Below are positions 36,144 through 50,625 of a DNA stretch of 64,000 bases, one piece after another. Position numbers and translations under genes: made by a program. The stretch is from Balneolaceae bacterium (GTDB lineage: Bacteria; Bacteroidota; Rhodothermia; Balneolales; Balneolaceae): assembly GCA_040880485.1 (NCBI GenBank), contig JBBDIJ010000002.1:51518-115517 (forward strand). Reading direction: 5' to 3'. The notes under the pieces are model-generated. The model was not told where the DNA came from. It saw nothing but the letters and a program-made list of their open reading frames with translations, and ran no database searches. Each line of letters begins with the position of its first letter. Positions within the stretch are counted from its first letter, which is position 1.

Positions 36144-36234
36144 TCCGAGATTGTGAGGTTTAGCTGCAGGTCTACCCGTTAGCATTGTGAAACCTGTTAG
36201 ATAAATCGGCCTTGGCTGCCGAATAAAGTTGTAA

Positions 36235-36267
36235 AAGCCGGCTTAAGAAATGGAGCCGGCTTTTTTT
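36235..36267 (+). terminator. rho-independent terminator of the pdh operon
   Basis: Perfect 9-bp stem AAGCCGGCT (36235-36243) pairs with AGCCGGCTT (36254-36262). It has a 10-nt loop and a T7 run. Confidence 0.65.
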
Positions 36268-36275
36268 ATGCCCTT

Positions 36276-36388
36276 CTGAAAAATTCTAATAATTGTAAAA
36301 AGCTTTTCTACACTCTTTTAAACGCAATAAATGGTAAAACGCACAGCTTCTTTAAACATTAGAATTTTATAATGTTAGAAAATTCTAA
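36276..36388. promoter_or_regulatory. cluster of three dyad sites (TTAGAA-N2-TTCTAA type) upstream of the orphan DUF4402-like gene
   Basis: CTGAAAAATTCTAA (36276-36289), TTAGAATTTTATAA (36359-36372) and TTAGAAAATTCTAA (36375-36388). The last has perfect inverted arms TTAGAA/TTCTAA and recurs exactly at 45395-45408. Confidence 0.4.
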
Positions 36389-36462
36389 TATATTAAACTC
36401 AAGCTCAATAAAGAGACCGACAACGCACGCAGGCACCAGCCACGACTCAGGAGGCAGCCACA

Positions 36463-36897
36463 ATGAAAATTCAAAGAAATTACCGTTTTGCTGCTGCCGC
36501 CATTCTGGTTGCCATGCTTTCGCACCTCTCCGTGGTACAGGCACAAAACTCGGTACAGGCTGTCATGCAGGTATCGGTAGAAGTTGTGTCCGGTGCAACG
36601 ATCCTGAGCAGTTTTAACGAAGACATTTCTGAGCAACTCTATTCGAACGAATCCAGCCAGATCCATTTTGGAGAGTACACGATTACAGTACCGAAAGGGG
36701 CAGAGTTCGCCGCAACAACCGAGAGAGAGGTAAGAATGGATGGCCACGCGGGTTCATTCACTATTCAATCCAAAATGGCTGGCAAGAGCGGTACGGACGG
36801 CAGCGTTACCTTCGAAATCAGTGGCTCCGCCAACGGGTCAGATCTTGCAGCAGGTCATTACAGCGGACGTCAGATTGCCACAGTCGTCTATTATTGA
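36463..36897 (+). CDS. secreted DUF4402/spore-coat-U-like fimbrial-subunit-like protein (orphan, convergent)
   Basis: Signal peptide ending VQAQ. AGGAGG lies 8 nt before the ATG. The mature part begins with alternating hydrophobics (VQAVMQVSVEVV) and the protein ends GHYSGRQIATVVYY. That is the G-x-Y-x-G...Y C-terminal pattern I associate with DUF4402. Confidence 0.5.
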   Translation: MKIQRNYRFAAAAILVAMLSHLSVVQAQNSVQAVMQVSVEVVSGATILSSFNEDISEQLYSNESSQIHFGEYTITVPKGAEFAATTEREVRMDGHAGSFTIQSKMAGKSGTDGSVTFEISGSANGSDLAAGHYSGRQIATVVYY

Positions 36898-39551
36898 CCC
36901 GCGGGCTCTGACTGAGTTTCGGGTACCACACTAATCTCGAGCCCCTCTACAAAGTCGCCTTCGGGCAGGGCACGTACCTTAAATTGAAGCCGGTCGGGGT
37001 TCGAACGTGCATTCAGGAAGGTGAGCTGCGCAGGGTCGATGGCCAGTTCATACTCTCCCGGCGGAATCTCATAGGCGTAAAAACTGCCGTCGGAGTAGGT
37101 ACGTAACTCTTCAGAATAGGGTTCTGCCCCATCTCCGGCATCCGTCTGGTTCAAAAAGAGACGGACACCCGGCAGCGGGTTCCTTCCCTCCTCCGTGTAG
37201 ATAAAAATACGGCCGTCCACGACACCGGACATATAGAGCGGTACATCGATCTGTTTATACTGGTTGGGATCGGTCACCAGGGAGAATTGATCGAATTGCG
37301 GCACGTGCATAGGGTTCAGAAGTGCCCCCTTGTTCACCGACAAGTTATACTGCCGGTAGGGCTGAAGCTGTGTGATGTAGGTGACCCCGTCTTTCTGCGA
37401 GATTACACCGCCACCTCTCTCAATTCTTACGGCGTTTCCGGGCTGTAGCTCGTCGCCATCGTCGTAAGTACCGTTATTGTTGTTGTCCACGTACATGCGA
37501 ATGGCCAGGGCCGACCGGCCGACCTGCTGGCGGTTGGAGGTCAAAAACTGGCCGTTATTAGAGTCGTATCCCAATGAGCCCCGAAGGCTCTGTGTGAACA
37601 CGGTATTGCCCGCTGTGCTCCGAAGATTGGAGTTGGATCGAACGGAACTGAAGTCGAATGTGAGGCCAAACCGCAAGTAGGTAAAGCCTCCGATGAAGTT
37701 TCGTCCCAGGGCGGCCTGAAAACGGCCCCGGTCAAATAGGCTCCGCCCTGCATGGATCTCCAGGTCTTCCAGGCTGTTTCGCGCCGGAGCATAGGTCATC
37801 TGCCCTCTCAGGTAGAGGCCGCGTAAAACGGGATGAACCTCACGGCTTCTCGAAAAACTGTAGGAGCCCGATCCCTGTATCCGTGAGGAGGTAGTAGGGC
37901 TGATTCCGAATGCACCGGTCTGGGTATCGCGGTAACTCATACGGACATTCATCCGCCCCAATCTGCTGTTGAGCTCTATGCGATATCGCGTGGTATTCAC
38001 CGAAACCCGGTTGTCGTGCGTAAGGGTGAGTCTCAGGAAAAGCGGGAATGAATCGGAGAGTGGTATTGGAGTAAAGATAGCCGATTGGATTCGGCTTCGG
38101 CTCCGCCCCGTATTGTAGATACCTCCGAGCTCGGAGAAGTGTGTATAGTCCAGCTGAAAACTTGCCGAAGAGGGGTAGATAACACTACTGTTCAGGCGGT
38201 AAAATCGTGCAGGTGCGGCCTCTACTGTAACCAGATAGTTGGTCATCAGCCTGGCAGAGAGTGCCGTACTGATGGTGGGAAGTTCGTCATGATACGCACT
38301 GAAATACTCTACATTGGCCCGGCCGGTCAGCCAGTTGGTGAAACCCGTGGTCACGGTGCCGTGTCCCATCCAGCTTCTCAGAGAAGTTCCCGGAAGGGGG
38401 GTGTCCATGCGTCCTGCATTCAGAGAGTAGTTTACCTCGCCGGGTGGAAGAAAGTTGAACGGGATCTGCAAACGAGCCTGACGTTCACTCATCTGGCCTG
38501 AGGCCCCATAGGTGCGTACGGTATATTGTGAAATGCCGTATGTGAGAGGCACCCGAAACTGATAGTACCCGTCTTCACTGGTCATTTGATAGTCGATCAG
38601 AGTGTTGTTGCGATAGATTTCAATTTCGGAGGAGGGGGCGGCCGTTCCGGTAAAGAGGTAGTCGTCATAGATGTATCGGGGTTCAATCGGGTCATTGGTG
38701 ATCTGAATCCCGGTGTAGGCTGCCGGCAACAGCCCGTCGGAGGTGCTTTGGCCTGCAGTAATCCGGCTCACCCACTCATTATCCCGAATTCCATAACGCC
38801 AGCGCAGGTTGCTGGAGCGCAGTGTGGAGGCGCTTTGTGAAAAATTACCAAAGAGGCTACCCTGGAGGTCCCCTCCCATCACTTCCGATCCGATACTGCC
38901 TGAGAAGAGATAGCTTGAATTGGTTTGGGAGATATTAGCCGATAGACTGTAGTCCAGGAATCCCGTGTTGAACCGGTTTTGCTGCCGGTCGAATCGCAGT
39001 GGGTAGTACTCCATGTAGATCTGCTGCTGCCGTCGGGTCAGCTGTTCGCGGCGCAGCTCCCGGTTTCGTCGTGCAACCACTGGCATAGTATCGTCAGACT
39101 CAAGAATAAGGCCCAGTGTGTTGAAATCGGGGATAAAGCGGAGCCCGAACAGCTCTTCAAACAGGTCCGGGTGAAGGTAGTAGTCGAGCTGCTCTATCAG
39201 AAAGTCGTTAGCCTCGAACTCAATACGTACGTCGCCCAGTGTGGCGGTGCGGCTATTGAAGTCGATGCGGTAGCGCCCGCGGTCCAGATACTCTCCCGTG
39301 ATCTGCAACCGGCCGTTCCTCACTTCGTAATCGATCTGCAGCAAGCTGAACACCTCTGTGACCGGGATGTAGAACTCCTCGCCGGTATAGAAGGAAGAGA
39401 TGTAGCTGTTTATGACTCCTGCATGGCGGAAATGGAGGAAAACTTCATCGGTATCCGCTACCTGCGCAGAGGCGTTATTTACCGGTCCCCACGCGAGAAA
39501 GAGGATGGCAACAAAGAGAACCCGGTGTATGGTTCTGCGAGGGGCATTCAC
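36891..39551 (-). CDS. usher-like outer-membrane assembly protein with atypical C-terminal beta-sandwich domains
   Basis: GTG start overlaps the chaperone stop (GTGA), and a signal peptide is present. TGTAAPSSEIEIYRNNTLIDYQMTSEDGYYQFRVPLTYGISQYTVRTYGASGQMSERQARLQIPF resembles the conserved usher plug/middle signature. A long Ser/Arg/Tyr-rich alternating-strand region looks barrel-like. The C-terminus has DNNNNGTYDDGDE (SdrD-B/Cna-B-like) and a carboxypeptidase-regulatory-like segment (TYSDGSFYAYEIPPGEYEL). Confidence 0.5.
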   Translation of the reverse strand: MNAPRRTIHRVLFVAILFLAWGPVNNASAQVADTDEVFLHFRHAGVINSYISSFYTGEEFYIPVTEVFSLLQIDYEVRNGRLQITGEYLDRGRYRIDFNSRTATLGDVRIEFEANDFLIEQLDYYLHPDLFEELFGLRFIPDFNTLGLILESDDTMPVVARRNRELRREQLTRRQQQIYMEYYPLRFDRQQNRFNTGFLDYSLSANISQTNSSYLFSGSIGSEVMGGDLQGSLFGNFSQSASTLRSSNLRWRYGIRDNEWVSRITAGQSTSDGLLPAAYTGIQITNDPIEPRYIYDDYLFTGTAAPSSEIEIYRNNTLIDYQMTSEDGYYQFRVPLTYGISQYTVRTYGASGQMSERQARLQIPFNFLPPGEVNYSLNAGRMDTPLPGTSLRSWMGHGTVTTGFTNWLTGRANVEYFSAYHDELPTISTALSARLMTNYLVTVEAAPARFYRLNSSVIYPSSASFQLDYTHFSELGGIYNTGRSRSRIQSAIFTPIPLSDSFPLFLRLTLTHDNRVSVNTTRYRIELNSRLGRMNVRMSYRDTQTGAFGISPTTSSRIQGSGSYSFSRSREVHPVLRGLYLRGQMTYAPARNSLEDLEIHAGRSLFDRGRFQAALGRNFIGGFTYLRFGLTFDFSSVRSNSNLRSTAGNTVFTQSLRGSLGYDSNNGQFLTSNRQQVGRSALAIRMYVDNNNNGTYDDGDELQPGNAVRIERGGGVISQKDGVTYITQLQPYRQYNLSVNKGALLNPMHVPQFDQFSLVTDPNQYKQIDVPLYMSGVVDGRIFIYTEEGRNPLPGVRLFLNQTDAGDGAEPYSEELRTYSDGSFYAYEIPPGEYELAIDPAQLTFLNARSNPDRLQFKVRALPEGDFVEGLEISVVPETQSEPAGQ

Positions 39552-40378
39552 TCAATTTCAAACGTTGTCGAGTGTGAAACCGGCGGCATCTGAATCAGGT
39601 TTCTTGATGAGATATCGCTTCTGGACGATTCAAATGTCACTTCAGCTCTGTAGGTTCCGGCTCCCAGGTCAGTAGCCTGGAATTCGCTTCGGTGATGGTT
39701 GCGGAAATAGACGGAAGTGGAGCTGTTCTGCTCCTGAACAAGCTGGTCGTTGCTGTTGTAGATGCGCACCGTTGCACTCCCCAGAAAGGGGGCGGAACCG
39801 GTTCTCTCCACATCGGTAAATATCATCAGCTGGTCGTTGTTCGTTTCGGCGCTCACGCTGTGGATCTGAAGGCCGGTGTTCGGACTTCCGACTTCAAGTA
39901 GTACGGCTGTAATCTGGTCGACCTGAAATGCCACCCTTGCGGTGACCCCTTCCGTCTCTTCTCCGATCGGTGGGGTTACCATGTTGGAGGAGACTCTCAT
40001 CCGGGTCCAGTAGATACCATCCTCCAGGTTTCCGGGGGGACGTCCCACGAGGCGAACGGTCTGTCGTTGTCCGGGTTGCAGCACAAAGGTAGTGGGGAAG
40101 GCTCGGAGCCACTCCTGCAGGGAGTACCGCTCTTCTGCCTCCCCGTCGTCGTAGTTGAGGGTCACATTGCCGTTCTCGTCGGTTTGCGGATAGGCGAATT
40201 CGAAGGAGAGGCGCACCTCGACCGGCTCATTAGCCGGATTGGAGACATAGAAGGAGCCGACGCCGGAGCTCTTTTCGAGAAAAACGGCGGTAGGAGAAAT
40301 AGTGACCTGAGCCAGTGCAGTGCCTGCGGAGAGAAGAAGAAGCACTATTCCGGAGAGAAGTAGTCGTTTGGGTTTCAT
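39548..40378 (-). CDS. PapD-like periplasmic fimbrial chaperone
   Basis: Signal peptide ending ALAQ. VTISPTAVFL...FYVSNPANEPVEVRL...FPTTFVLQPGQRQTVRLV parallels the PapD N-domain pattern (IxPTRxI, LxVxN, PPxxxLxPGxxQxVR). The length fits two Ig-like domains. Confidence 0.5.
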   Translation of the reverse strand: MKPKRLLLSGIVLLLLSAGTALAQVTISPTAVFLEKSSGVGSFYVSNPANEPVEVRLSFEFAYPQTDENGNVTLNYDDGEAEERYSLQEWLRAFPTTFVLQPGQRQTVRLVGRPPGNLEDGIYWTRMRVSSNMVTPPIGEETEGVTARVAFQVDQITAVLLEVGSPNTGLQIHSVSAETNNDQLMIFTDVERTGSAPFLGSATVRIYNSNDQLVQEQNSSTSVYFRNHHRSEFQATDLGAGTYRAEVTFESSRSDISSRNLIQMPPVSHSTTFEIE

Positions 40379-40455
40379 GGGTTCGTTTCGTGAATGTCTT
40401 GCCCTGCCTGACGGTTGGAAAAGTCTGTAAAAAATGAGCTACCGCAATTATAATC

Positions 40456-40490
40456 AAAAAAAAGGCTCCATGAAATGAAGCCTTTTTTTT
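40456..40490 (-). terminator. hairpin terminator/attenuator between the major-subunit gene and the chaperone gene
   Basis: A8-GGCTCCA-TGAAA-TGAAGCC-T8: a 7-bp stem with one mismatch, flanked by an A8 and a T8 run. It lies in the 137-nt gap after the stop at 40516. Confidence 0.55.
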
Positions 40491-40515
40491 CTGATTTTCC
40501 GTACGTTCTATCGGT

Positions 40516-41031
40516 TTAGATACCAGTGTATTGAACCGTTATAGTCAGGTTCGACCCGTTCGTGTTGGTGGTGCTGTAATCTCCCGCTACAGTAGCTGCG
40601 TCCAATGCTCCACCAACCGTGAATACCAGAGGGCCAGTTGAAAGATCGAAATCGGTTCCAGCCGGCAGTACCTCGGTGTTGCCGCTATTTTCGAAGATGG
40701 AGGGAGTAAAGGTCAGGGTGTTGGTACCGTCACCATCGGCCAGTGTGGCTGTTCCGAAGGATATGGCGGCATTTGCATCTCCGGCAACTGTAAAAGCACC
40801 GGTCTGAGCGTTCTCCCCGACATTTTCATCGGGGTCGTCGCTCGCGTTGGCGTTCAGATAGGCGCCGCTATTCTGAGAGATGGTTCCGAAATTAACGTTT
40901 GTAATGTCGGAGAACGTAATAGCAGCCTGAACGTCTGCCGCTACCTCGATATCCTGAGTGGATTGAGCCTGTGCCTGTACAGTAAATACGATGGCGATTA
41001 CCAGGATCGGGGCAATGATTAATTTATTCAT
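40516..41031 (-). CDS. DUF4402-like secreted protein, candidate major filament subunit
   Basis: The ATG at 41031 gives MNKLIIAPILVIAIVFTVQAQAQ (signal peptide). The mature protein is Ala/Thr/Gly/Asn-rich with NVNFGTI, GAFTVAGD and a C-terminal GDYSTT...LTITVQYTGI. It has its own upstream region and downstream terminator. Confidence 0.6.
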   Translation of the reverse strand: MNKLIIAPILVIAIVFTVQAQAQSTQDIEVAADVQAAITFSDITNVNFGTISQNSGAYLNANASDDPDENVGENAQTGAFTVAGDANAAISFGTATLADGDGTNTLTFTPSIFENSGNTEVLPAGTDFDLSTGPLVFTVGGALDAATVAGDYSTTNTNGSNLTITVQYTGI

Positions 41032-41098
41032 GGTCTGTAGGATTGGTTGCGCGTTTAAAATCTTCAATGAAAGTTTATTGCTATTTTCGGTGCCGCCC

Positions 41099-41116
41099 AA
41101 GTTAGAAGCCTTTAAT
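41099..41116. promoter_or_regulatory. proximal copy of an 18-nt repeat AAGTTAGAAGCYTTTAAT upstream of the major-subunit gene
   Basis: AAGTTAGAAGCCTTTAAT, with one mismatch to the copy at 41209-41226. It contains the dyad-like TTAGAAGCCTTTAA. Confidence 0.4.
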
Positions 41117-41208
41117 TAACAAGCTCTAATGTCAGTAGCTTTCCGTTTTTAACCCATGCATTTTTTTCTGTAGATATAGAGATGATATCAGGTTCCCTGC
41201 CCAATCCA

Positions 41209-41226
41209 AAGTTAGAAGCTTTTAAT
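41209..41226. promoter_or_regulatory. distal copy of the 18-nt repeat; its minus-strand reading contains TAACTTTG
   Basis: AAGTTAGAAGCTTTTAAT, one substitution away from the perfect palindrome TTAGAAGCTTCTAA. The reverse complement of 41207-41214 is TAACTTTG, which matches the Bacteroidetes -7 consensus TAnnTTTG. Confidence 0.4.
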
Positions 41227-41261
41227 ATATACGATGCATGAGGGTGAGTAGAAAAGTGGAC

Positions 41262-41798
41262 TCAATCGTAGAGGATGTCGAGTACAATCTCTCCGGAGTA
41301 GGTTGCATTCGGGATATTGCCGACCTCTACTTCACCATAGAGATAGAGGAATACAGAGGACCAGTTCTGCCCCGGTGCGTTGGGAGGGGGCTGAATGGTA
41401 ACATCCTCCGTTGGGAGTGTGAAGGGGCGAGCCAGCCTGTAATCATTCACGCCGAAATCGACCAGAGCCGCCTCCATCCGGATAGGTATGGTGGCCGTAA
41501 TCGCCGGGTCGGTGGCGGTCAGCCTCTCGGGAAGGTTCAGCGTGAAGTGCAATCGCTGGCCTGTGAGGCCATTGATTCCGAATACGCCCATGCCCATATC
41601 TCCGAGTTCAACCCGGCTTATACCATTGCCAGCCACGACGCTCCCGAAGGAGAGGTTGCTCTCTACAGTGGCATTGACCTCCGAGGGGACCTCAATCTCT
41701 ACGGTCAGGAACTGGCCACTGAGTTGAGGGGGTACCCAGAGGGAGAGCAGTAGTGTGAGAATGGGTACCGGGAGGGTGTGTGTCACCTTCCTACACAT
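41262..41798 (-). CDS. DUF4402-like secreted protein (minor subunit candidate)
   Basis: Signal peptide ending LSGQ. SNLSFGSVV and C-terminal ATYSGEIVLDILYD. 8-nt overlap with the upstream gene. Confidence 0.5.
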   Translation of the reverse strand: MCRKVTHTLPVPILTLLLSLWVPPQLSGQFLTVEIEVPSEVNATVESNLSFGSVVAGNGISRVELGDMGMGVFGINGLTGQRLHFTLNLPERLTATDPAITATIPIRMEAALVDFGVNDYRLARPFTLPTEDVTIQPPPNAPGQNWSSVFLYLYGEVEVGNIPNATYSGEIVLDILYD

Positions 41799-42399
41799 CG
41801 GCCTGTTCGTAATAGATGGTTACCGTAATGGTGCCCTGGTAGTATCCGGCGTCCACATTTCCGACGTCGATGGTTCCGTAGAGGTAGAGGTATGCGTTCT
41901 CGTTCACCAGGCTCTGATCGAAATCAAGCGTTGGAGGGGGTGGGGGAGGCCCGGGAGCGTTTTGCAGCCGTCCCAGTATGGGGAATCGGGCGTTTGAAAA
42001 GTTGTTGACGACCGGAATGTACTGGGAGTCGCCCAGGTTGTTCTCTCCTCTGTTGGCATAAGCTGCCTGCAAGTTGAAAGGGATGCTGCAGGAGGGGTCT
42101 CCGCTGCAGGCGGCATTCCCTTCGAGAAGGAGCTCTCCGTCTGCCTCTATCTGAACAAAGGCATCCAGATAGTTTACACCTGTGACCATCAGGGCTTTCG
42201 CCTGGGGCAGTTCCACTTCATAGAGGCCGCCACCAGTTACAATGGGCCCTTCAAAGACCAGGTCATCCAGAGAGAGCTGGTCGAGTGTGATGGTATAGCT
42301 CTCATACTGGCTGAAAGAGAGCTCCTGCCCGAATCCGCTCTTTGCCACAAAAACAAGCATCAGAGAAGCGGCAAGGATATGTTTGCAGAAGTGCCTCAT
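41791..42399 (-). CDS. DUF4402-like secreted protein with Cys pair and poly-proline insert
   Basis: Signal peptide ending GFGQ. C-terminal GYYQGTITVTIYYEQADV, plus CSGDPSC and APGPPPPPPT inserts. The track start at 42402 is TTG. I use the adjacent ATG at 42399, which shares one nt with the upstream stop. Confidence 0.45.
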   Translation of the reverse strand: MRHFCKHILAASLMLVFVAKSGFGQELSFSQYESYTITLDQLSLDDLVFEGPIVTGGGLYEVELPQAKALMVTGVNYLDAFVQIEADGELLLEGNAACSGDPSCSIPFNLQAAYANRGENNLGDSQYIPVVNNFSNARFPILGRLQNAPGPPPPPPTLDFDQSLVNENAYLYLYGTIDVGNVDAGYYQGTITVTIYYEQADV

Positions 42400-42977
42400 C
42401 AATTGTACTCCACTTCCAATGTAAACTCCCCTTCATAGGCTCCGGTGGTGGCGTCTTCCAGATTGACGAGCCCTCCGATCCAGAGGTAGAATTGGCCTTC
42501 TTCGTTAAACTGATACTCCCGGCTGTCCGGCTCCAAAACCTCCGCCGTGTCCTGTTCGTCGAGATAATTTCCAGCTACATCGAACCGGATGCCAAGAAGG
42601 CCGGTGCGCTCGATGTTTACCATTTCCCGATTGCGCAGCCAGGTGACCTGAAACGAGGAACCAGGTGATCCCTGGGCCACCATCTTTCCCGCCCTGGGGC
42701 TCAGAACCGGGTCTATATTCAGCTCCCTCTGATCTGCTTGCAATTCACTGAAATCCATACCCTGTAGCGTGACCACTTCAAGCGACTGCAATACGCTGGC
42801 ACTCACCTGAATGGTAATGATCTCCTGCTTTCTGTCCTCGCTCTGGGCGGCCAGTTTTGAGGGAAACAGAAAGGCCGGAACAAGACAAAGAAACCATGCC
42901 ACAGGAAGCAAATTATGCAAACTCACTTGTATCCCGACGGAGAGAAGAACCGGCTTTATTTTGTTGCGAAAATTCAT
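42399..42977 (-). CDS. DUF4402-like secreted protein (minor subunit candidate)
   Basis: C-terminus GAYEGEFTLEVEYN matches the GxYxGxFxVxVxYN ending I recall for DUF4402 proteins. Long N-terminal signal/anchor ending KLAAQ. The track start at 42992 is TTG, so I prefer the ATG at 42977. Confidence 0.5.
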   Translation of the reverse strand: MNFRNKIKPVLLSVGIQVSLHNLLPVAWFLCLVPAFLFPSKLAAQSEDRKQEIITIQVSASVLQSLEVVTLQGMDFSELQADQRELNIDPVLSPRAGKMVAQGSPGSSFQVTWLRNREMVNIERTGLLGIRFDVAGNYLDEQDTAEVLEPDSREYQFNEEGQFYLWIGGLVNLEDATTGAYEGEFTLEVEYN

Positions 42978-43058
42978 GCCCAAAGATCGCAAGAAGCAGA
43001 CGCGTCCCCTAATTAAGCTTTTTTAACACGAACCCTGATCGGCTACAGTGAAGCCACC

Positions 43059-44111
43059 CTACTCATAGATACTTGTGGCCGTGTATTTGCGGCCGGCGCC
43101 GTTTACGTTGGCTGATGCTTTTTTTGCATACTCTATGGCCTGGCAGTCGTACTGAATGTTCACGTTACCGCTAATACCGACATCCATAGTTCCTATATCA
43201 TTTGTATTACCGATCAGCATCGAACCGTTAATACTGGGGGTCCCCTTGGCAGAGAGGGAGAAGGCGTTTTCGAAGATCACCAGGCCGTTGAATGTAAAGT
43301 TCCCTCCCAGATCCAGCTCACCTTCCATCTCCAGCTCTCCGTTGGTCCGGATTACCAGGATACCATATCCCTCACTGGCACCACCCTTTAGTTGGGTAGA
43401 GGAGGTGACAAAGAAGACACCGGGATTATCGGCAGAGCCAAGAGGTTCATTCACGTTACCTCCGAGAAACTGTGCCCCAGGTTGCTCCTCCAGCCTTTGA
43501 ATCATTTCTGTGACATCATCGAAGTTGAGAGCAGGGTCGACCTCGATTGCGGGATCTCCATCAATCTGGCTGGCATATCCCTCCACTTTATCTTCGCCTT
43601 CGGCGCTCTGTACCGCTACACCGGGCCCATCTTCACAAGTCATGCTGGCGTCATTGCCGCTAATGGATGCAGAAGCTCCGTCTATGCCGAAGGTAAAATC
43701 GTCGGTAGCGATACCGATCGCCCCATTGAAATCCGGTAAGAAGTGCAACTCCTGAAGTTGATAGGTGACGTTGATCGACTGTTCCTGGTCGCCCACGGTA
43801 CCTGTAGCACGGAGGCGGTAGGTTACGTCATCTTCGTCGGCCGGGTCGGCGCAGTAGATAAACTGCACGATGGCGGTTCCCTCATCCAGCGCGTAGGTCA
43901 GGCTGCCGTCCTGGGTGCACACTGTCTCGTCCTGCATCATCTGGTGAATCGTGAGCTCCAGGGCAGAGTGTGCGATATTAGAGGATTGGGTGCGTTCAGC
44001 GTATCCGGTACTGTGCCGGGAAAGGCCCAGAACCGTGTCCTGAAGGCCCGATTGTGTGATTCCGACGGAGAGAAGCACGCCGGATACGATAATGAGCATG
44101 GCACGTCCCAT
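43059..44111 (-). CDS. PilX-N-like pseudopilin-like protein with beta-helix-like C-terminal part
   Basis: N-terminus MGRAMLIIVSGVLLSVGITQSG followed by NIAHSALELTIHQM resembles the PilX N-terminal domain. The C-terminal GYGILVIRTNGELEMEGELDLGGNFTFNGLVIFENAFSLSAKGTPSINGSMLIG resembles the repetitive end of PilX-like proteins. Confidence 0.45.
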   Translation of the reverse strand: MGRAMLIIVSGVLLSVGITQSGLQDTVLGLSRHSTGYAERTQSSNIAHSALELTIHQMMQDETVCTQDGSLTYALDEGTAIVQFIYCADPADEDDVTYRLRATGTVGDQEQSINVTYQLQELHFLPDFNGAIGIATDDFTFGIDGASASISGNDASMTCEDGPGVAVQSAEGEDKVEGYASQIDGDPAIEVDPALNFDDVTEMIQRLEEQPGAQFLGGNVNEPLGSADNPGVFFVTSSTQLKGGASEGYGILVIRTNGELEMEGELDLGGNFTFNGLVIFENAFSLSAKGTPSINGSMLIGNTNDIGTMDVGISGNVNIQYDCQAIEYAKKASANVNGAGRKYTATSIYE

Positions 44112-44171
44112 ATCAGCTCCATTTCATTTTCAGGTTATAGGTCATTTCATTCTTCACGGCTGGAACCGGTT

Positions 44172-44825
44172 TTAGAGGTCCAGGTTGGGCGGTACAATGG
44201 TTTTTCGCCATTGGGAGGCGGGAAACCGCACCTCCCCGCCCGGCATACCCACCCCTTCCCGGGGCTGGGTCTCTACAAATATTTCGATCCGTCGTATTTC
44301 ACTCATGTCAGATGCGGCTATCGGGAACGTCATTGGAGTATTGCTGCCAGCAGTATAGTACTGCAGTTCAAAACGTGTAACCCCAATTCCGATGTTGGTA
44401 ACTTCGTCCGTGGTGGCCCCGGTCACAATGCTGCCACCCGGGGTGTCAATCACCATATTACTGGAGACGATTCGCTGGAGAATTCGGTGATCCGGGTTTC
44501 CGCTTCCGGGAACCATCTGGTCGGTGTAACCCCACATGACAATCGGAGGATTTCCGGCAAGGACCGGATCGGCTTCTACGTTGGCTTCAAATGCGATGGT
44601 GTCGGGTGTGGCCAGAAAAATTGGAGAAGAGATTGCTCCATCGATATCATAACCGGCTTTCTGGAAGTCGAATAGAAGCATCTCGTAAACCGCTTCTATA
44701 TGGGTTTTGGACATCTCATGAAGTGCAAGGTCGGAGGAGTGCTGGCCCAGACGCAGATTGAGTGTGGCGATCATCAGGATCAGCACACCTGAAATGATAA
44801 AGCTCATTGAGAGTCCGAGGTTCAT
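44172..44825 (-). CDS. PilW/GspJ-like pseudopilin-like protein
   Basis: Single N-terminal hydrophobic helix (MSFIISGVLILMIATLNL). LLFDFQKAGYD and VTRFELQYYTAG...IRRIEIFVETQ resemble minor-pilin beta-sheet signatures. There is no GFTLIE motif. Confidence 0.35.
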   Translation of the reverse strand: MNLGLSMSFIISGVLILMIATLNLRLGQHSSDLALHEMSKTHIEAVYEMLLFDFQKAGYDIDGAISSPIFLATPDTIAFEANVEADPVLAGNPPIVMWGYTDQMVPGSGNPDHRILQRIVSSNMVIDTPGGSIVTGATTDEVTNIGIGVTRFELQYYTAGSNTPMTFPIAASDMSEIRRIEIFVETQPREGVGMPGGEVRFPASQWRKTIVPPNLDL

Positions 44826-44837
44826 ACCTTTACTTCC

Positions 44838-45356
44838 TCAGTCGTGATTGTAGGTTCGTACATAGGCCACCCGAACAGGATTGGTCAGAGAGGGGTTGGT
44901 TACCGTGACCACCATTCGTTTATGCCGGGTACGTATAGTGGTGGGAGTGGCCGGATCGTCCTCCGTAACATAGTGTACCTCTGCTGAAATCTCATACGGG
45001 CCCAGGTTGGTATCCATCACCTCTTCCCAGCCGTGGTACCCTTCATATGAAGCTATATCGCTGCGGTTGCCTGCCGTCGTATGGGGGAAATTGGGGGCGG
45101 CAAACTCTTCGGGCATCTGAATCGGAATGTGTCCATCTACTGTAACACTGTCGAAGGGACGCAGGAGGGCCTCCTCAATCAGATCCTGGCCCAGAGTGAC
45201 CGCCAGCATCTCCACTTCCGACGCCACCTGCTGTTGGGTGTTGGAGAGCATATAGCGATTGGTGGATAGAAGAATGATCGAGAAAATCACCATCGCCCCC
45301 ACCACCTGTATCACTTCTGCGTATCCGTTCATATCATTTCCGTTATGAGCTGTCAT
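44838..45356 (-). CDS. PilV-like pseudopilin-like protein
   Basis: N-terminus MTAHNGNDMNG-YAEVIQVVGAMVIFSIILL: a Gly followed by a hydrophobic helix, with Glu at +3 rather than the canonical +5. Small globular C-terminal part. Confidence 0.35.
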   Translation of the reverse strand: MTAHNGNDMNGYAEVIQVVGAMVIFSIILLSTNRYMLSNTQQQVASEVEMLAVTLGQDLIEEALLRPFDSVTVDGHIPIQMPEEFAAPNFPHTTAGNRSDIASYEGYHGWEEVMDTNLGPYEISAEVHYVTEDDPATPTTIRTRHKRMVVTVTNPSLTNPVRVAYVRTYNHD

Positions 45357-45394
45357 GAAGGCCCCGACACTGCAATGAGTTCGGTACCTTTTTA

Positions 45395-45408
45395 TTAGAA
45401 AATTCTAA
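45395..45408. promoter_or_regulatory. dyad TTAGAAAATTCTAA upstream of the pseudopilin-like genes
   Basis: An exact copy of the site at 36375-36388 (the identical stretch is the 15-mer TTAGAAAATTCTAAT). It lies about 40-50 nt upstream of the ATG at 45356, in the 153-nt gap after the adhesin gene. Confidence 0.4.
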
Positions 45409-45509
45409 TGAATTAGGTTCAATCTACAAAATTTCATCAGTAATTCCATCCTGATCATTCAATGTGAACGTAAATGTTATCGTAGTCAATACATTTCATA
45501 CATACCGAC

Positions 45510-48500
45510 CTATTCAATACGAGTCATCTTTCGGTTTAATACCCCTTCCGAAGTCACCAGGCGAACAAAATAGACTCCGCTGGCGATCGACCCTCCGTTC
45601 CACGGCAGTTCATAGTATCCCGCCTCCTGCCGTCCGCGGAGCACGGTCTGAACCCTGCGTCCCAGAATATCGTAGATCTCGATGCGGACATCGGTTTCCA
45701 CCGGCAGGCCATAACGAAGTGTGGTTGATCCGGCAAAAGGGTTTGGATAGTTGCTCTGTAACACCAGGTGATCAGGTATTCCGGCCGCGTCGGCTCCAGG
45801 GTCTATCACCATGACAAAACGGGCCTCACTACGCAGGCCGGTAATCTTGCGAACCAGACTGAATGAACCGGGACGATTCACGTGCGGTTTGGCAGCCCCT
45901 GCCGATGAGAGCGTAAAATCGTACCAGCTGTTCTGCCTCATATCCACTTCGCCTCCGGTATTGCGGTCAATTAGCCGGAGCGACCACTCCTGCGGGAGAT
46001 TTTCAAGTTCCGGCCAGGAGAGGGTGGCTTCTCCCTCCATCCAGTTGCCGTTACGAACCCCACCCACCTGAATCGGAATTTCTATGGTTCGGCCAAACCG
46101 GCGCGGCAAGTTGCGGATCGCCAGTTCGGTGCCGTCATCCAGAAGAGAGTAGACCTCTACCCAGGTATCGGTTCCAAACGGGAGGAGGCGGTAGGCATCC
46201 TGGTCGTCCAGCTTGTTGCTGCCCCCCTCCGTGAAGGAGAAGTGCGTGGATTGGGAGAGTCCGTCTGATGTGAGCTCGAGTGCAATCACGGGTGGACTCT
46301 CCGGCTCTGCGGATTCGCGATAGAAAGTTCCGCCTGTGGTTTTAGAGACTTTGCGAACCCGGAGGGAAGGAGCCCCGTTTCCGTTTGCCTTGACCCAGAA
46401 TCCCTGGAAAGGGGCAATTTTACCCGACCCGAGCGAGCCAGCCGACCCGTTCCATGTGAGATATTGGCCGCTTGTTTCGTCCCACACGTAGATCGTGTTG
46501 TTCATGTTCGTTTTTTGCCAGGTTCCGTCGTCCCAGTCGATGGCAGCAGCGAAGGGGTTGGCCACCAGGTTCCAGCCCGTGTCGGCCACGGCAGTGTACG
46601 TAACCGGAAGGGCGACCTCGGTTCCGTTTCCGTCATGCTCCTCTCCGGTCACCTCCAGTGTTTGAGGCAGCGGGTCGTTGTAGCGATTGTCTTCCGGGAT
46701 ATCCCCGAAAAAATATACGAAGTAGCCGCGACCTGGTGTGACCGTGTCTGAGGCATCGGCAGGTGCCCTCCAGCGCTGATTGTCGGTCCCCGGGTGAGAC
46801 TCCTGATACCAGAGTACGTTCGGTTGCAGTGTGTCGCTCTCCGTATCGTAGAGGTCGGCACCGGGATAGCCCTGTGTGAGGGTTCCACCCAGAAGGTCAG
46901 AGACGCTGGATATGATCGGGCTGCCGAGCAGTCTCCAACCCCGATTTCCTGATATCTCCCTCTGCATCCGGAGGTTTTCCGTAGTGCCTGATTTGTTGTT
47001 GGCCACCAGGCTATAGCCAGATGGGATATCCAGTAGCCCATTCTGCAGTGTGAGTGTGCCGTTCACCACCAGGTCGTTGTTAAATGTGACCGATACACCG
47101 TTGTTGATAGTGAGGTTATGGATCGGGCTGAACCCGCTCACTTCCTGCGCAGCGGTTCCGTTGAACTCAACATCGGTGTCGGTGAGCAGAATGTTTGAAG
47201 TGGTTGCATCGATGCTGCCTCCAAATCGAAAGGTAGATCCGTTTCCGGATAGGTTACCGTCAATAGTGATCTGGTCAATCATGACCAGTTCGGATCCCGT
47301 TTCATTATTCAACGTCTGTCCGGTGTTGACGCTCAGGTTCAATGAGGCCTCCAGATAACCCTCGTTCACAACATCACTCTGAATAAAAATCTGATCTCCT
47401 ACAAGGTTGGTCGAGTCGGAAATCGTCAGACCTCCTGCCCGCTCCAGATAGATATCAGAGGTACCAGCTGTAATGTTTTTGATATTAATCGGGCCAAATA
47501 GCTCAACTGTCGCTTCGTCGGCAATTAGCGTCCCGCTTCCTGAAATCTCCTGGTGGATCGTCAAAAGACGTCCGGAGTTGAGATTGATGGTTGCATCCTG
47601 GTGGATCACCAGAAAGTCGATCTCGACATCCAGCTCATCAATGAGCGGAAAGTTTTGACTTTCAGCCGGATTGGTCGGAATGATGACTACCTGGCCTGTA
47701 GTTGGAACTCCAAGTTCCCAGTTTCCTGCCTGCTCCCAGATTCGACTATTTGCGGGGTTCCCTCCGGCGCTGGTCCATGTGTTGAACTGTGTAACGCTGA
47801 TCACTGCGTCGTTGGTGATGGCACTGCTGTTGACGGTTCCAGTAACGGTCACCGACTCCATTGCCATACCAGCGGTCAGGGTGGCGGTGTAGATCCCACC
47901 CCCCTGATTGGTAACGGCAGAGAGTGAGCTGTTGCTGCCACCGTCGTCCAGGGTCACGGTGTCGTCTCCCTGGGTTCGAAGGTTTCCAAAGGCGTCCCGA
48001 ACTTCAACGGTGATGGTGGTGTTGTCTGTCCCGTCGTTCTGGAGGAAGGAGGTGGCTGGGGTGATGGTGGTTGTGGCGGTACTGGCCGGACCGGCGACGA
48101 CGGTGAACAATTCACTGGTTCCGCTCTCCGAAAAGCCCGATCGTCTTGCGGAGATCGAAAAATTGCCGGCGGAAGAGAGTGTAACACTGTGGGTGTTCAG
48201 AACACCCTCTGTGAAGGTAGCAGTGGTGCCGCTGCCGGACGAGATGGTTCCGCTTGAAGTGATGACCGTGGTAGCTCCGCTACCATCAAACGACTCCACA
48301 ATGTTGTCAAAAGCGTCGAGAGCAGTGATCCGTATCGGAAAGATCACACCTGCGGTCTGCTCTCCAATGGTCCCGCCTGTTTCCGCCTCCACCAGAAAGG
48401 TGGTGAGGGCGCCAAAGGTAAAGTTGACCAGCACATTTCCGGAAGTGATTGTCTGGCTGTTTACACTGGCGCCAATCTCGAAATTTCCTACCTCACCGGG

Positions 48501-50537
48501 AGCGGTAATTGTGGCACTCCAGGTACCGTTGCCTGTATAGACAGGGGTGCTGATAGTGAGCTCAGCGGCCAGGTCAAAGATCTGGACCAGGTTCTGGTCG
48601 TCCTCTATCGGGTTGCCAAATTCGTCTCTTAGCTGAACCGTCACTTCTGCCTCGCTGGAGCCGTCGGCAATCAGAGTGTCTGTGTCGATAGTGATAATAG
48701 AGCTATCGGGATCGGCCGCCGCGGCCGAAACGGTGAATTCATTGGATGTGCCGGTCTGAGGCCCGTCGTTGTTCACAACGAAAACCGTGTGTGTGCCGCT
48801 CTCGATGAGGGCCACCGGATGGGTCGCAATTCCGTCGGTAAAAGGGATGGTGGTATTGGTGGCGCCGGACAGGGTGCCGGTAGTGGAGAGGGTGACTTCT
48901 CCGTTAAATTCATCAATCAGGTTGTTGTTGCCGTCCACCGCACGAATCGAGAGGTCGAATGTCTCGCCAGCTGTTTTGGAGGAAATGATCTCCTCATTTC
49001 CATTCACCAGCTCCCAAATGTTAAACCGGGAGAGTTTACCACTCTCCACGACTATAAATGGAATACTTGTCGTACTCTGCAAGTCAGTACTCACCGCTTC
49101 CAGCCGATACTCCAACGTTGAGTCGGGAGGCTGGTCCACTGCGATGTTGTCGAACACCGACCGCCCCTCGATGTCGGTGTCTACCGAGGTGGTGCTCAGG
49201 TGGAAGCTACCGTTACTGTGATTGATCCGAATCAGGTTCAGCTCCACCGTGCGTCCTGCCTCCTGGACCAGGTTTTCCCAGGCGTCCACCAGGCGGACAA
49301 TGGGCGGTGGTTCAATGGTGCTCTGCCGGTTGGCAGATCGGGGTAGGGTGGTAAAGATCAGGCTGTCGGCTGCGGCCGGCACAATGGTAACAGGATCTGA
49401 AGTGATGGAGAGAAGGCCGGGTGCGGTGAATCGGAGGTCTATCTCGCTCGCCAGGGTGTGGAACAGGTCATTGAAATCGTACTGGGCCGAGCTGTTTTCC
49501 AGGCTGGTGGTTCCCTGCAAGGTTCCACTGCCGGATAGCCGGGCTGCGGTTACGGTTCGGGCAACCCCGTCGGTTACGCGGTTGCCAAAGTTGTCATGGA
49601 CCTCTACCCGGAAGAGGTCCATCACCTCGCCGGCATCATATTGCGGGCTGGCGCCCAGGTCGGAGGGTTGATCGGTGAGCACGAGCCGGGTCGCTTCAGC
49701 CGGTACAACTTCGATCTCACCGGAAGGGAAGGGCGTGAGGCCGGTGATCTGAGCGCGGATGTTGGCCGTTCCTGTTCGTGCACCAATCATTGTGGCGGCC
49801 TCCCCATCCCCGGCGGCTACCAGGTCGGCCTGTTGAATCTCTCCGGTAATATTGGTCAGATCCCAGGTGGCCGATCCGGGCGATTTAAAGTTGTTGAACT
49901 GGTCCCGCACCACAGCATAGACGTCCAGGGAGTTTCCGGCTGGCAACTCCTGGAATGCGACGAGGGAGCCACTACCGTCGGGGGCTGATTCCACCCGTAC
50001 ACCCGCGTCGGCACCGGCCACTTTGGTGACCTGTGCAAAGCTGGTGGAACCCACCGCAATGGCAGGACCCGATGCGGTGACATTGAAGTCTCCCAGATGG
50101 GTACCGCTGGTCGGCCGAAGCCGGAAATTGGAAAAGGTGGCCTGGCCGGCTCTTCTTGGCGGGTCATTGCTCGTTGACGTTACCTGAAAGGTGATGGTGG
50201 AAGCGGTCCGGCTCACATACTGGATGGCGAGTTTCGTGTTGCCGTTGAAGCCGGGCGCCACATTGATCGCAACGGCAGGGGCCGTTCCGCCGGTATCCCA
50301 TTCAAATCCACTGGGCGCGTTAAAACGGATTTCACCCAGCACGACCTGTCCCGCCGAGGTTTCGGTTATCACAGGGCCGTTCATCAGGGTGTTGTATGTA
50401 CCACCGACGTTATCTGCACTGATGATCACGGGGGTGGCCGGCTGCACCTGTTGTGCATCGGACACAGCGGCTCCTGCAAGCATGCCGAGAGTCAGCATCA
50501 GAAGGGTGGAAAGAGCGGTTGAAATGCGGAGGTTCAT
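45510..50537 (-). CDS. giant (1675 aa) Ig-repeat surface adhesin, T9SS cargo
   Basis: Signal peptide MNLRISTALSTLLMLTLGMLAGAAVSDAQ. Seven roughly evenly spaced D-x-(F/W/N)-x-N motifs (VRDQFNNF, VHDNFGNR, VDAWENL, VDGNNNL, LRDEFGNP, LDAFDNI, VRDAFGNL) are typical of bacterial Ig-like repeats. The middle is Asn/Gly/Thr/Ile-rich and beta-helix-like. The C-terminus is a T9SS sorting domain. Confidence 0.8.
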   Translation of the reverse strand: MNLRISTALSTLLMLTLGMLAGAAVSDAQQVQPATPVIISADNVGGTYNTLMNGPVITETSAGQVVLGEIRFNAPSGFEWDTGGTAPAVAINVAPGFNGNTKLAIQYVSRTASTITFQVTSTSNDPPRRAGQATFSNFRLRPTSGTHLGDFNVTASGPAIAVGSTSFAQVTKVAGADAGVRVESAPDGSGSLVAFQELPAGNSLDVYAVVRDQFNNFKSPGSATWDLTNITGEIQQADLVAAGDGEAATMIGARTGTANIRAQITGLTPFPSGEIEVVPAEATRLVLTDQPSDLGASPQYDAGEVMDLFRVEVHDNFGNRVTDGVARTVTAARLSGSGTLQGTTSLENSSAQYDFNDLFHTLASEIDLRFTAPGLLSITSDPVTIVPAAADSLIFTTLPRSANRQSTIEPPPIVRLVDAWENLVQEAGRTVELNLIRINHSNGSFHLSTTSVDTDIEGRSVFDNIAVDQPPDSTLEYRLEAVSTDLQSTTSIPFIVVESGKLSRFNIWELVNGNEEIISSKTAGETFDLSIRAVDGNNNLIDEFNGEVTLSTTGTLSGATNTTIPFTDGIATHPVALIESGTHTVFVVNNDGPQTGTSNEFTVSAAAADPDSSIITIDTDTLIADGSSEAEVTVQLRDEFGNPIEDDQNLVQIFDLAAELTISTPVYTGNGTWSATITAPGEVGNFEIGASVNSQTITSGNVLVNFTFGALTTFLVEAETGGTIGEQTAGVIFPIRITALDAFDNIVESFDGSGATTVITSSGTISSGSGTTATFTEGVLNTHSVTLSSAGNFSISARRSGFSESGTSELFTVVAGPASTATTTITPATSFLQNDGTDNTTITVEVRDAFGNLRTQGDDTVTLDDGGSNSSLSAVTNQGGGIYTATLTAGMAMESVTVTGTVNSSAITNDAVISVTQFNTWTSAGGNPANSRIWEQAGNWELGVPTTGQVVIIPTNPAESQNFPLIDELDVEIDFLVIHQDATINLNSGRLLTIHQEISGSGTLIADEATVELFGPINIKNITAGTSDIYLERAGGLTISDSTNLVGDQIFIQSDVVNEGYLEASLNLSVNTGQTLNNETGSELVMIDQITIDGNLSGNGSTFRFGGSIDATTSNILLTDTDVEFNGTAAQEVSGFSPIHNLTINNGVSVTFNNDLVVNGTLTLQNGLLDIPSGYSLVANNKSGTTENLRMQREISGNRGWRLLGSPIISSVSDLLGGTLTQGYPGADLYDTESDTLQPNVLWYQESHPGTDNQRWRAPADASDTVTPGRGYFVYFFGDIPEDNRYNDPLPQTLEVTGEEHDGNGTEVALPVTYTAVADTGWNLVANPFAAAIDWDDGTWQKTNMNNTIYVWDETSGQYLTWNGSAGSLGSGKIAPFQGFWVKANGNGAPSLRVRKVSKTTGGTFYRESAEPESPPVIALELTSDGLSQSTHFSFTEGGSNKLDDQDAYRLLPFGTDTWVEVYSLLDDGTELAIRNLPRRFGRTIEIPIQVGGVRNGNWMEGEATLSWPELENLPQEWSLRLIDRNTGGEVDMRQNSWYDFTLSSAGAAKPHVNRPGSFSLVRKITGLRSEARFVMVIDPGADAAGIPDHLVLQSNYPNPFAGSTTLRYGLPVETDVRIEIYDILGRRVQTVLRGRQEAGYYELPWNGGSIASGVYFVRLVTSEGVLNRKMTRIE
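45513..45767 (-). other. T9SS C-terminal sorting domain (type A) of the giant adhesin
   Basis: The last 85 aa are LVLQSNYPNPFAGSTTLRYGLP...IEIYDILGRRV...GYYELPWNG...SGVYFVRLVTSEGVLNRKMTRIE. They carry the NYPNPF, IYDxxGR and GVYFVRL hallmarks. Confidence 0.7.
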
Positions 50538-50598
50538 ATACGGTTCACACTCCTGCTAAAGTTTCTGTAAATTAAGCAGATATCGCCCCCAAAGGGAA

Positions 50599-50612
50599 TT
50601 AGAATACTTTAA
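50599..50612. promoter_or_regulatory. degenerate dyad-like site in the divergent adhesin / rhamnose-operon promoter region
   Basis: TTAGAATACTTTAA, preceded by a C-rich tract (CGCCCCCAAAGGGAA) as in the copies at 41099 and 41209. Only one arm is conserved. Confidence 0.25.
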
Positions 50613-50625
50613 GAGTAGCCAAGGT

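Follow-up and report, generated by a model that had tools for sequence, protein, structure and literature searches.

The 64-kb window examined here (from contig JBBDIJ010000002.1 of a Balneolaceae bacterium; "the window" means this whole stretch of DNA) contains at positions 36271-50625 a locus of eleven open reading frames (ORFs), ten on the minus strand and one on the plus strand. As listed in Table 1, these encode a giant adhesin with a sorting domain of the type IX secretion system (T9SS), a trio of proteins (pp172, pp217 and pp350), two of which have predicted pilin-like folds, and a putative chaperone-usher (CU) system comprising an usher, a candidate chaperone and five small proteins that resemble the family DUF4402. 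The pdhA/B/C operon, closed by the hairpin behind pdhC, lies on one flank and the rmlA-D genes on the other. Overlaps of 4-8 nt join the usher and chaperone genes, s178 and s203, and s203 and s197. An earlier reading of the nucleotide sequence (hereafter the original prediction) had already placed the eleven ORFs, their overlaps and the short gaps between them at or near these coordinates; the start of pp172 has since been moved to 45332, and the pdhC terminator, with its perfect hairpin and T-run, and the start of rmlA at 50626 were recovered as described.

When the eleven proteins were scanned against Pfam and NCBIfam, nearly all fell below threshold and the adhesin alone was significant, so that family assignments rest on orthologs, profile-profile comparison and structure prediction. 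Taken together, the profile and structure searches put the proteins in the families that had been guessed from the sequence and not in unrelated, already characterized ones. In what follows, L numbers denote loci of relatives and P numbers denote proteins.

Table 1 Features of the locus and its boundaries, numbered by position in the 64-kb window.
Feature	Position	Strand	Remarks
pdhC intrinsic terminator	36233-36271	+	perfect 11-nt inverted repeat AAAAGCCGGCT/AGCCGGCTTTT with 10-nt loop, then T-run; hairpin 36233-36264; downstream boundary of the locus
Double dyad upstream of s144	36359-36388	.	75-104 nt before the gene
s144, secreted DUF4402-like subunit, 144 aa	36463-36897	+	convergent on the usher gene, overlapping its 3' end by 7 nt
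Usher, 886 aa	36891-39551	-	outer membrane; signal peptide; short form without SPOR tail; from Pfam matches of orthologs
PapD-like chaperone candidate, 276 aa	39548-40378	-	periplasmic; stop overlaps usher start by 4 nt
Terminator-like hairpin	40456-40490	-	after s194 and before the chaperone gene; 16-pair stem between A8 and T8
s194, DUF4402-like, probable major fiber subunit, 171 aa	40516-41031	-	start 41031 from orthologs and the NCBI call
s194 promoter/operator region	41096-41225	-	dyad 41212-41225; direct repeat GCTTCTAACTT(T/G)GG at 41206-41219 and 41096-41109
s178, DUF4402-like probable minor subunit, 178 aa	41262-41798	-	from hhalign
s203, DUF4402-like probable minor subunit, 203 aa	41791-42402	-	proline-rich insert; from hhalign
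s197, DUF4402-like probable minor subunit, ~167-192 aa	42399-42977 (or 42992)	-	start codon uncertain; from PF14352 and hhalign
pp350, predicted PilX/GspK/ComZ-like minor-pilin fold, leaderless, 350 aa	43059-44111	-	from AF2, Foldseek and the PilX_N link
pp217, predicted GspJ/XcpW/EpsJ-like minor-pseudopilin fold, leaderless, 217 aa	44172-44825	-	from AF2 and Foldseek
pp172, 164 aa from the likely start (172 aa as first read)	44838-45332 (45356 as first read)	-	MNGYAE start from orthologs and the NCBI call
Perfect dyad TTAGAAAATTCTAA	45395-45408	.	63 nt upstream of the likely pp172 start
Adhesin, 1675 aa	45510-50537	-	signal peptide, invasin/Big_1 immunoglobulin-like repeats, C-terminal module, T9SS type A sorting domain
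rmlA start	50626		rmlA-D genes begin here; upstream flank of the locus

The usher is recognizable through its relatives. Full-length orthologs that are 40-52% identical to it match the Usher family PF00577 above the cut-off of 27.1 bits (P0068, 43.2 bits, E = 3.2e-11; P0025, 33.7 bits), in agreement with the original prediction, and 6 of 18 diverse homologs match it at E ≤ 0.1. The match spans profile positions 40-212, the plug region, corresponding to about residues 290-430 of the window protein, which itself has no direct Usher match and reaches only a TcfC E-set domain (E = 0.069) and CarboxypepD_reg (7e-4). The 886-aa sequence is 100% identical to a hypothetical protein of a Balneolaceae metagenome-assembled genome (MAG). 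At least 135 homologs were found, mostly in Balneolaceae and otherwise in Cyclonatronum, Rhodonellum (Cytophagales) and MAGs of Bacteroidales; the Rhodonellum psychrophilum homolog carries the NCBI name "fimbria/pilus outer membrane usher protein". Most Balneolaceae orthologs are 1000-1490 aa long and end in a peptidoglycan-binding SPOR domain (e.g., L001 10001-14392, P0013, P0068), a fusion that we do not know from any studied CU system. In loci with ushers of ~1000 aa (L037 12931-17718; L054, L009), four extra co-directional genes, encoding proteins of about 610, 170, 266 and 500-580 aa, lie between usher and pdh; they are absent from the window.

For the candidate chaperone, the PapD_N match of the window protein (E = 0.0067, 16.8 bits) lies under the cut-off of 23 bits. 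PapD_N is matched by 23 of the 38 chaperone orthologs, all weakly (best 1.1e-5); PapD_C was not matched, and a sequence-profile search gave no match in the PDB. The earlier assignment as PapD-like is kept here in this weaker form. Weak matches to Por_Secre_tail also occur in 19/38 orthologs (best 6e-5); a T9SS-type tail on the chaperone was considered and dropped, and the signal is probably one of generic similarity between C-terminal β-sandwiches, since the three orthologs tested gave no match at E ≤ 0.01. In the closest relatives (L013 13617-15130; L017 13674-15190), a second pair of DUF4402 subunit and chaperone genes lies downstream of the usher, and the window chaperone is closer to that second copy than to the first.

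Among the five small proteins of the window, DUF4402 (PF14352) is reached below threshold by s144 (E = 0.0092) and s197 (E = 0.075). Although s194 has no Pfam match of its own, its positional orthologs match DUF4402 (e.g., a protein of 200 aa in L085), as do 17/39 s194/s144 orthologs overall (best 5.4e-11). Aligned to the s194/s144 profile by hhalign, the other three are linked to it with probabilities of 99.3 (s197, E = 1e-20), 98.0 (s178, E = 1.9e-13) and 96.7 (s203, E = 4.7e-10). On the strength of these ortholog matches and hhalign links we assign all five proteins to one DUF4402-like superfamily, as the original prediction had proposed. The four co-directional subunit genes form distinct orthologous groups, and the order s197-s203-s178-s194-chaperone-usher is kept even at an usher identity of 30-36%, as in L085, L086 and L087, with DUF4402 matches falling at corresponding places in these operons. 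s194 begins with a signal peptide followed by an alternating hydrophobic strand, DIEVAADVQAAITF. The family SCPU (PF05229), which had been expected among these proteins, gave no match at E ≤ 10 for any window protein and is not among the top families of the 39 orthologs. A full-text literature search returned no mention of DUF4402, and searches on CU systems in Bacteroidetes and on pili of Balneolaceae or Gracilimonas returned nothing relevant.

The adhesin has the clearest domain matches in the locus: Invasin_D3 (E = 8.7e-26) and Big_1 in its repeats, and, as predicted from the outset, a T9SS sorting domain at residues 1597-1671 (TIGR04183, E = 4e-12, 45.9 bits against a cut-off of 23; Por_Secre_tail PF18962, 30.9 bits against 27). 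Conservation extends well beyond this 75-aa domain to the C-terminal ~530-600 aa (residues ~1070-1675), and the N-terminal immunoglobulin (Ig)-like part is variable. The C-terminal module recurs at 32-34% identity (E = 1e-72) in giant proteins abutting the CU operon of the distant loci L085 and L087. In L085 the end of the giant T9SS gene meets the start of the first subunit gene, and in L087 a gap of 10 nt separates the two. Searches of Pfam and of PDB sequences gave no family and no match for the module. By eye, its residues ~940-1600 (window 45738-47720, minus strand) resemble a β-helix-like stretch and then a W/G-rich domain. A gene for a PorV-like outer-membrane protein (PF19572), a component of the T9SS shuttle, lies in the window at 7846-9006 on the minus strand, ~30 kb from the locus. 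Inside the locus itself there is neither a T9SS core gene nor a PilB/C/D/Q-like gene, in keeping with the original prediction.

For the trio, sequence-profile searches of the PDB with pp172, pp217 and pp350 gave no meaningful match. The AlphaFold2 (AF2) model of pp217 (predicted local distance difference test score, pLDDT, 90.7; predicted template modeling score, pTM, 0.80) consists of a helix at residues 3-55 followed by two β-sheets, and its top 16 Foldseek matches are all GspJ-type pseudopilins (XcpW, EpsJ) or Thermus TTHA1219 (probability 0.94-1.0). No Pfam family was matched across 32 pp217 orthologs, and the family appears to be confined to Balneolaceae. The model of pp350, built from a 36-sequence alignment (pLDDT 82, pTM 0.73), has a helix at residues 3-60, a four-stranded sheet and a β-solenoid-like domain; its best PDB match in Foldseek is ComZ (6qvi; E = 7e-5, probability 0.99), followed by β-solenoid ice-binding proteins and then, weakly, EpsI. 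PilX_N (PF14341) was found neither in pp350 nor in its 29 orthologs. An exhaustive profile search did retrieve a distant relative of pp350 from Nitrospira/Manganitrophaceae (P0358, profile E = 4.7e-15), named "pilus assembly PilX N-terminal domain-containing protein", which matches PilX_N at E = 9.7e-7 (29.1 bits against a cut-off of 25.5), and two Balneolaceae homologs are labeled "PilX N-terminal" in UniRef. Seven of the 29 orthologs match DUF4900 (best 3.6e-11), a family for which a literature search gave nothing relevant. Across 32 aligned orthologs, pp172 has an N-terminal hydrophobic helix that opens M-x-G-Y-S-E, the acidic sixth residue being conserved; we infer its pilin nature from the gene context.

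None of the three proteins carries a class III signal, with its basic leader, conserved G(-1) and E(+5). Their N-termini open directly at the helix (M-x-G-Y-S-E, M-N-x-G-x-x-T-S and M-G-R-A-M-L), and the G is replaced by D in the type B copies described below and is not conserved among pp217 orthologs. N_methyl (PF07963), another family expected beforehand, appeared as a single noise match (E = 0.55), and neither the trio nor its orthologs matched any pilin family. By the signal-peptide criterion the trio proteins are therefore not prepilins, though two of them have the predicted fold. Of the PilV-, PilW- and PilX-like identities originally suggested, the pseudopilin-like folds of pp217 and pp350 hold up, the PilV-like label of pp172 does not, and prepilin signals are lacking throughout. 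In some loci the trio is tandemly duplicated (L037 825-6374, L066 1300-6625, L062 1262-6520, L110 6507-11071), with a type A copy opening M-x-G-Y-S-E and a type B copy opening M-N-D-F-S-D (139, 196 and about 455 aa), the latter followed by an extra secreted protein of ~130 aa.

The original prediction had called the locus an island. We regard it as a conserved chromosomal locus and not as an acquired element, because its GC content is unremarkable (0.49-0.61 across the region, with no departure from the flanks) and its position relative to rml and pdh is conserved: relatives keep the pdh operon beside it and, in many loci, rmlA as well. Horizontal acquisition was considered and ruled out on these grounds and because no repeats, tRNA or mobile genes were seen. 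Compared with the closest relative (e.g., L013), the surface-locus proteins are 37-53% identical, as against 73-84% for PdhC/PdhB, the locus evolving much faster than its housekeeping neighbors.

We compared gene neighborhoods in two sets of loci. The usher-centered set was obtained by a profile scan with an 8-sequence usher alignment (an 18-sequence alignment was too divergent as a query), taking one genome per species; it comprised 80 Balneolaceae loci and three distant loci, and 58 were informative. Upstream of the CU set, adhesin and trio occur together in 29/58 loci, so that the three modules singled out in the original prediction do adjoin one another in relatives. The adhesin occurs without the trio in 14/58 (including L085, which was re-scored by hand after an ORF-boundary artifact), the trio without a visible adhesin in 4/58, and neither in 11/58, the latter being of the Rhodohalobacter type with men genes upstream. 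The adhesin is thus found upstream of the CU set in 43/58 loci, distant Bacteroidota-like ones included, and the trio in 33/58, always between the adhesin and s197 when it is in the locus. The trio-centered set, from a metagenome scan, contained 49 informative loci: CU genes lie directly downstream of the trio in 21 of these and are lacking in 28. Stand-alone trios occur in at least four unrelated contexts, never beside recognizable pilus machinery, and the internal gene order is kept in 108/120 cases. Conversely, trio-free CU sets, with or without the adhesin, occur in Rhodohalobacter and Balneola and in each of the three distant loci analyzed. Because the C-terminal module of the adhesin persists next to the CU operon in the distant L085 and L087, the adhesin-CU pairing appears to be the oldest linkage, and the trio a separable cassette that often, but not obligatorily, stands between them. 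We know of no prior description of a persistent operon linkage between a T9SS adhesin and a chaperone-usher set.

The non-coding gaps of the locus share a 14-nt dyad, TTAGAA-NN-TTCTAA. With at most one mismatch it occurs four times in the 64 kb, each time in a gap of this locus: twice before s144 (36359 and 36375), once before s194 (41212) and once before pp172 (45395). Shuffled sequences give an expectation of 0.10, and 0/100 shuffles reached four, which bears out the shared motif noticed in the original prediction. The double dyad, with its members 16 nt apart, also precedes the s144 ortholog in L003, L004, L009, L013 and L014; s194 orthologs are preceded by a conserved "TTAATTAA..CTCTAACTTGG" element; and a dyad is found ~40-66 nt upstream of pp172 orthologs, those of stand-alone trios included. 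A survey of about 160 related loci (2.4 Mb) yielded 85 dyads at ≤1 mismatch. One lies within 150 nt upstream of 28/117 s194/s144-like genes (24%), 17/110 pp172 genes (15%) and 6/77 s197 genes (8%), as against 8/568 other genes (1.4%) and 0/86 chaperone genes, counting in both cases those preceded by at least 60 nt of intergenic sequence; the other dyads mostly fall 150-260 nt before genes of these three classes. When two mismatches are allowed and the distance is limited to 120 nt, the dyad precedes 93% of s144 orthologs (14/15), 58% of s194, 34% of pp172, 26% of adhesin and 22% of s197 orthologs, and 0-9% of internal operon and pdh genes.

The distance from dyad to start codon is 17-85 nt, and the dyad therefore probably overlaps or abuts promoters. 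The Bacteroidota -7 promoter box is TAnnTTTG, and the right arm of the dyad with the bases that follow (TAACTTGG) resembles it. A sigma-70 promoter scan was uninformative (13 sites against 8.8 expected), and Rfam gave no match to known RNA elements in the locus gaps. Operator or part of a special promoter, the dyad argues more strongly than any other finding for a common regulon of trio and DUF4402 genes. In L018, a 147-aa ORF that looks like an AraC-type helix-turn-helix protein (5146-5589, minus strand) lies directly after the usher, in the place of s144, with a dyad 84 nt upstream; it is a possible candidate for the regulator.

From the gene content, homologies, predicted folds, neighborhood statistics and motif enrichment observed here, we consider it probable that this is an ancestral chromosomal adhesion locus of the Balneolaceae, composed of three mechanistically distinct modules with one transcription direction and one shared cis-regulatory element. 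Its core would be a CU fiber system of DUF4402-fold subunits, which would cross the inner membrane via Sec, be captured by the PapD-like chaperone and polymerize at the outer-membrane usher by donor-strand exchange. The major subunit would be s194, whose own promoter region and strong terminator may provide subunit in excess over the assembly factors; a strong terminator after the major subunit gene is the classic pap- and fim-type layout for an excess of subunit over chaperone and usher. The proteins s197, s203 and s178 would be three distinct conserved minor subunits and s144 an extra subunit. As partner of this fiber, the giant Ig-repeat adhesin would be exported by a T9SS encoded elsewhere. 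Inserted between the two would be the three-gene pilin-fold cassette, apparently a mobile paralogous unit present at other chromosomal sites too, whose order (pp172, GspJ-like, PilX/GspK/ComZ-like) would be that of minor-pilin tip or priming complexes. With the dyad in common, the modules may be co-regulated, and they may cooperate at the cell surface.

Several observations weigh against this interpretation. The window's own chaperone, usher and subunits all stay under the curated Pfam cut-offs, and their sequence profiles match nothing in the PDB; what suggests donor-strand complementation is the family membership of the subunits, their signal peptides and their alternating hydrophobic N-terminal strand. 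The Foldseek TM-scores of the trio are modest (~0.4-0.6 for pp217 and 0.24 for pp350), and pp172 has no Pfam match, no PDB match and no profile similarity to pp217 or pp350. The trio lacks G(-1) and E(+5), and neither the window nor the 2.4 Mb of flanks showed a gene for a pilus motor, platform, secretin or prepilin peptidase; a regular-expression scan of both for canonical prepilin and type II secretion system (T2SS) E ATPase motifs found none within the few genomic regions that it samples. The dyad could be a type of promoter and not an operator. Finally, genes may stay adjacent within one family through inherited synteny: conservation is just as strong for the pdh operon next door, and since the pdh and rmlA neighbors are kept as well, adjacency alone is no proof of function.

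This last point leads to the alternative that adhesin, trio and CU set are mere neighbors, held together by inherited synteny, with the dyad a general promoter feature of AT-rich gaps between envelope genes. The conservation of both the pdh and the rml operons alongside, the separate occurrence of the modules and the likeness of the right arm plus TAACTTGG to a -7 box all fit such a view. It is made unlikely by the distribution of the dyads, which are 6- to 17-fold rarer before other gapped genes (8/568), absent before the 86 chaperone genes and, within the 64-kb window, confined to this locus, and by the tight junction of giant T9SS gene and first subunit gene in L085 (abutting) and L087 (10 nt apart), as well as by the adhesin's C-terminal module, which has been retained together with the CU set at 32-36% identity.

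A further reading is a composite apparatus in which a leaderless trio, without prepilin peptidase and maybe without a motor, works with the DUF4402 fiber and the T9SS adhesin under one regulator that recognizes TTAGAA-NN-TTCTAA; we hold this, too, to be improbable. One integrated hybrid apparatus, with trio, CU fiber and adhesin physically and functionally coupled, would for example have a tip-like trio complex anchored in the inner membrane that serves the usher fiber or presents the adhesin with no motor or prepilin peptidase. It would account for the trio invariably standing after the adhesin gene and before the first subunit gene, in the same orientation and with little sequence in between, for the same dyad before trio and DUF4402 genes, even in stand-alone trios, and for the absence of canonical class III signals from all three trio proteins. 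It would also fit the absence of pilus machinery nearby (in the window and the 2.4 Mb motif scan) and the seeming confinement of the pp217 family to Balneolaceae, where the CU locus is widespread. CU genes are, however, not nearby in 28/49 trio loci, and trio-free CU sets occur in Rhodohalobacter, Balneola and the three distant loci. To our knowledge, no CU system studied so far requires pilin-like components of the inner membrane for its assembly, which takes place at the outer membrane. Because the modules are separable in this way (the trio alone, the CU set without trio or adhesin), a single integrated machine is not supported, and we find the coupled hybrid rather implausible. Least plausible of all is a surface coat or sheath instead of a thin pilus, like the myxobacterial spore coat protein U-type systems and with adhesin and trio unrelated: four to five distinct conserved subunit paralogs, the peptidoglycan-binding SPOR tail of most ushers and the lack of a two-domain tip adhesin gene after the usher in the window would suit it, but there is no SCPU match and the layout of major subunit plus terminator is typical of fimbrial operons.

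On our preferred reading of an ancestral adhesion locus with three distinct modules, each module is of a known kind and, as the original prediction held, we know of no description of the combination; the usher family had already been partly named (Rhodonellum, NCBI). What is new about it is that its subunits are of the DUF4402 class, that ushers of relatives carry SPOR tails, that the trio is leaderless and that a dyad is shared. DUF4402 would gain a concrete function that can be put to the test, that of supplying the subunits of a CU fiber system in Balneolaceae, Rhodonellum and Bacteroidales MAGs. A family-restricted, leaderless pilin-fold cassette prompts one to ask whether such proteins polymerize and, if so, by what means, and a 14-nt dyad linking trio and subunit genes offers a handle on the regulator and on the conditions of attachment in halophilic and marine bacteria. 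The lasting linkage of T9SS adhesin and CU operon suggests that two export routes are used in a coordinated manner for adhesion; were the composite apparatus true, there would be cross-talk among three envelope-assembly pathways hitherto held to be independent. Since the locus is present in the cultured strains Gracilimonas tropica DSM 19535, Aliifodinibius salipaludis WN023 and Balneola sp. EhC07, experiments are feasible.

Among known systems, the CU genes most resemble those of the archaic pili Csu of Acinetobacter baumannii and CupE of Pseudomonas aeruginosa, which likewise have several small secreted β-sandwich subunits, one chaperone and one usher, and whose subunits also have a G-x-Y...Y ending and an alternating hydrophobic strand at the start. 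Archaic CU systems are phylogenetically widespread, with hosts named in Proteobacteria, Cyanobacteria and Deinococcota (PMC9452303, PMC10104325); here the hosts are Balneolaceae and Bacteroidota. Unlike in Csu and CupE, the subunits match DUF4402 and not SCPU, the genes of the three probable minor subunits come first and that of the probable major subunit directly precedes the chaperone gene, the usher gene is not followed by one for a two-domain tip adhesin, a C-terminal SPOR domain is present in most ushers of relatives, and there is no detectable similarity to solved CU proteins. Because SCPU is not matched, we speak of a system that would be Csu/CupE-like in its working and do not count it as a member of that class.

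The trio invites comparison with the GspI-J-K tip of the T2SS (XcpV-W-X, EpsI-J-K), the predicted fold of pp217 matching XcpW/EpsJ and pp350 resembling the GspK/PilX type in its long N-terminal helix, β-sheet, large insert and PilX_N link. In GspH/I-J-K and PilV-W-X operons, the order of a small, a J-like and a K-like gene and the sizes of their products match the trio (164/217/350 aa). In contrast to those operons, the trio has no class III signal or N_methyl match and no gene for a major pilin, ATPase, platform, secretin or prepilin peptidase nearby, it is a multi-copy and often stand-alone cassette, and pp172 is unassigned. Thermus thermophilus provides TTHA1219 (5g23/5g24), among the best matches of pp217, and ComZ (6qvi), the best match of pp350 and, like it, a pilin-type structure with a large β-solenoid-type insertion; the two Thermus genes are adjacent and in the same order as those of pp217 and pp350. 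The Thermus proteins differ from the trio in having prepilin signals and in being encoded beside the major pilin, within a locus for a DNA-uptake pilus; the trio has a CU fiber set and a T9SS adhesin as neighbors, and sequence identity to the trio proteins is ~10-13%. Adhesins of the SprB/RemA type, finally, are likewise large, repetitive, Ig-like proteins with a T9SS type A sorting domain; unlike them, the adhesin described here has no link to gliding genes and is instead tied to a chaperone-usher operon.

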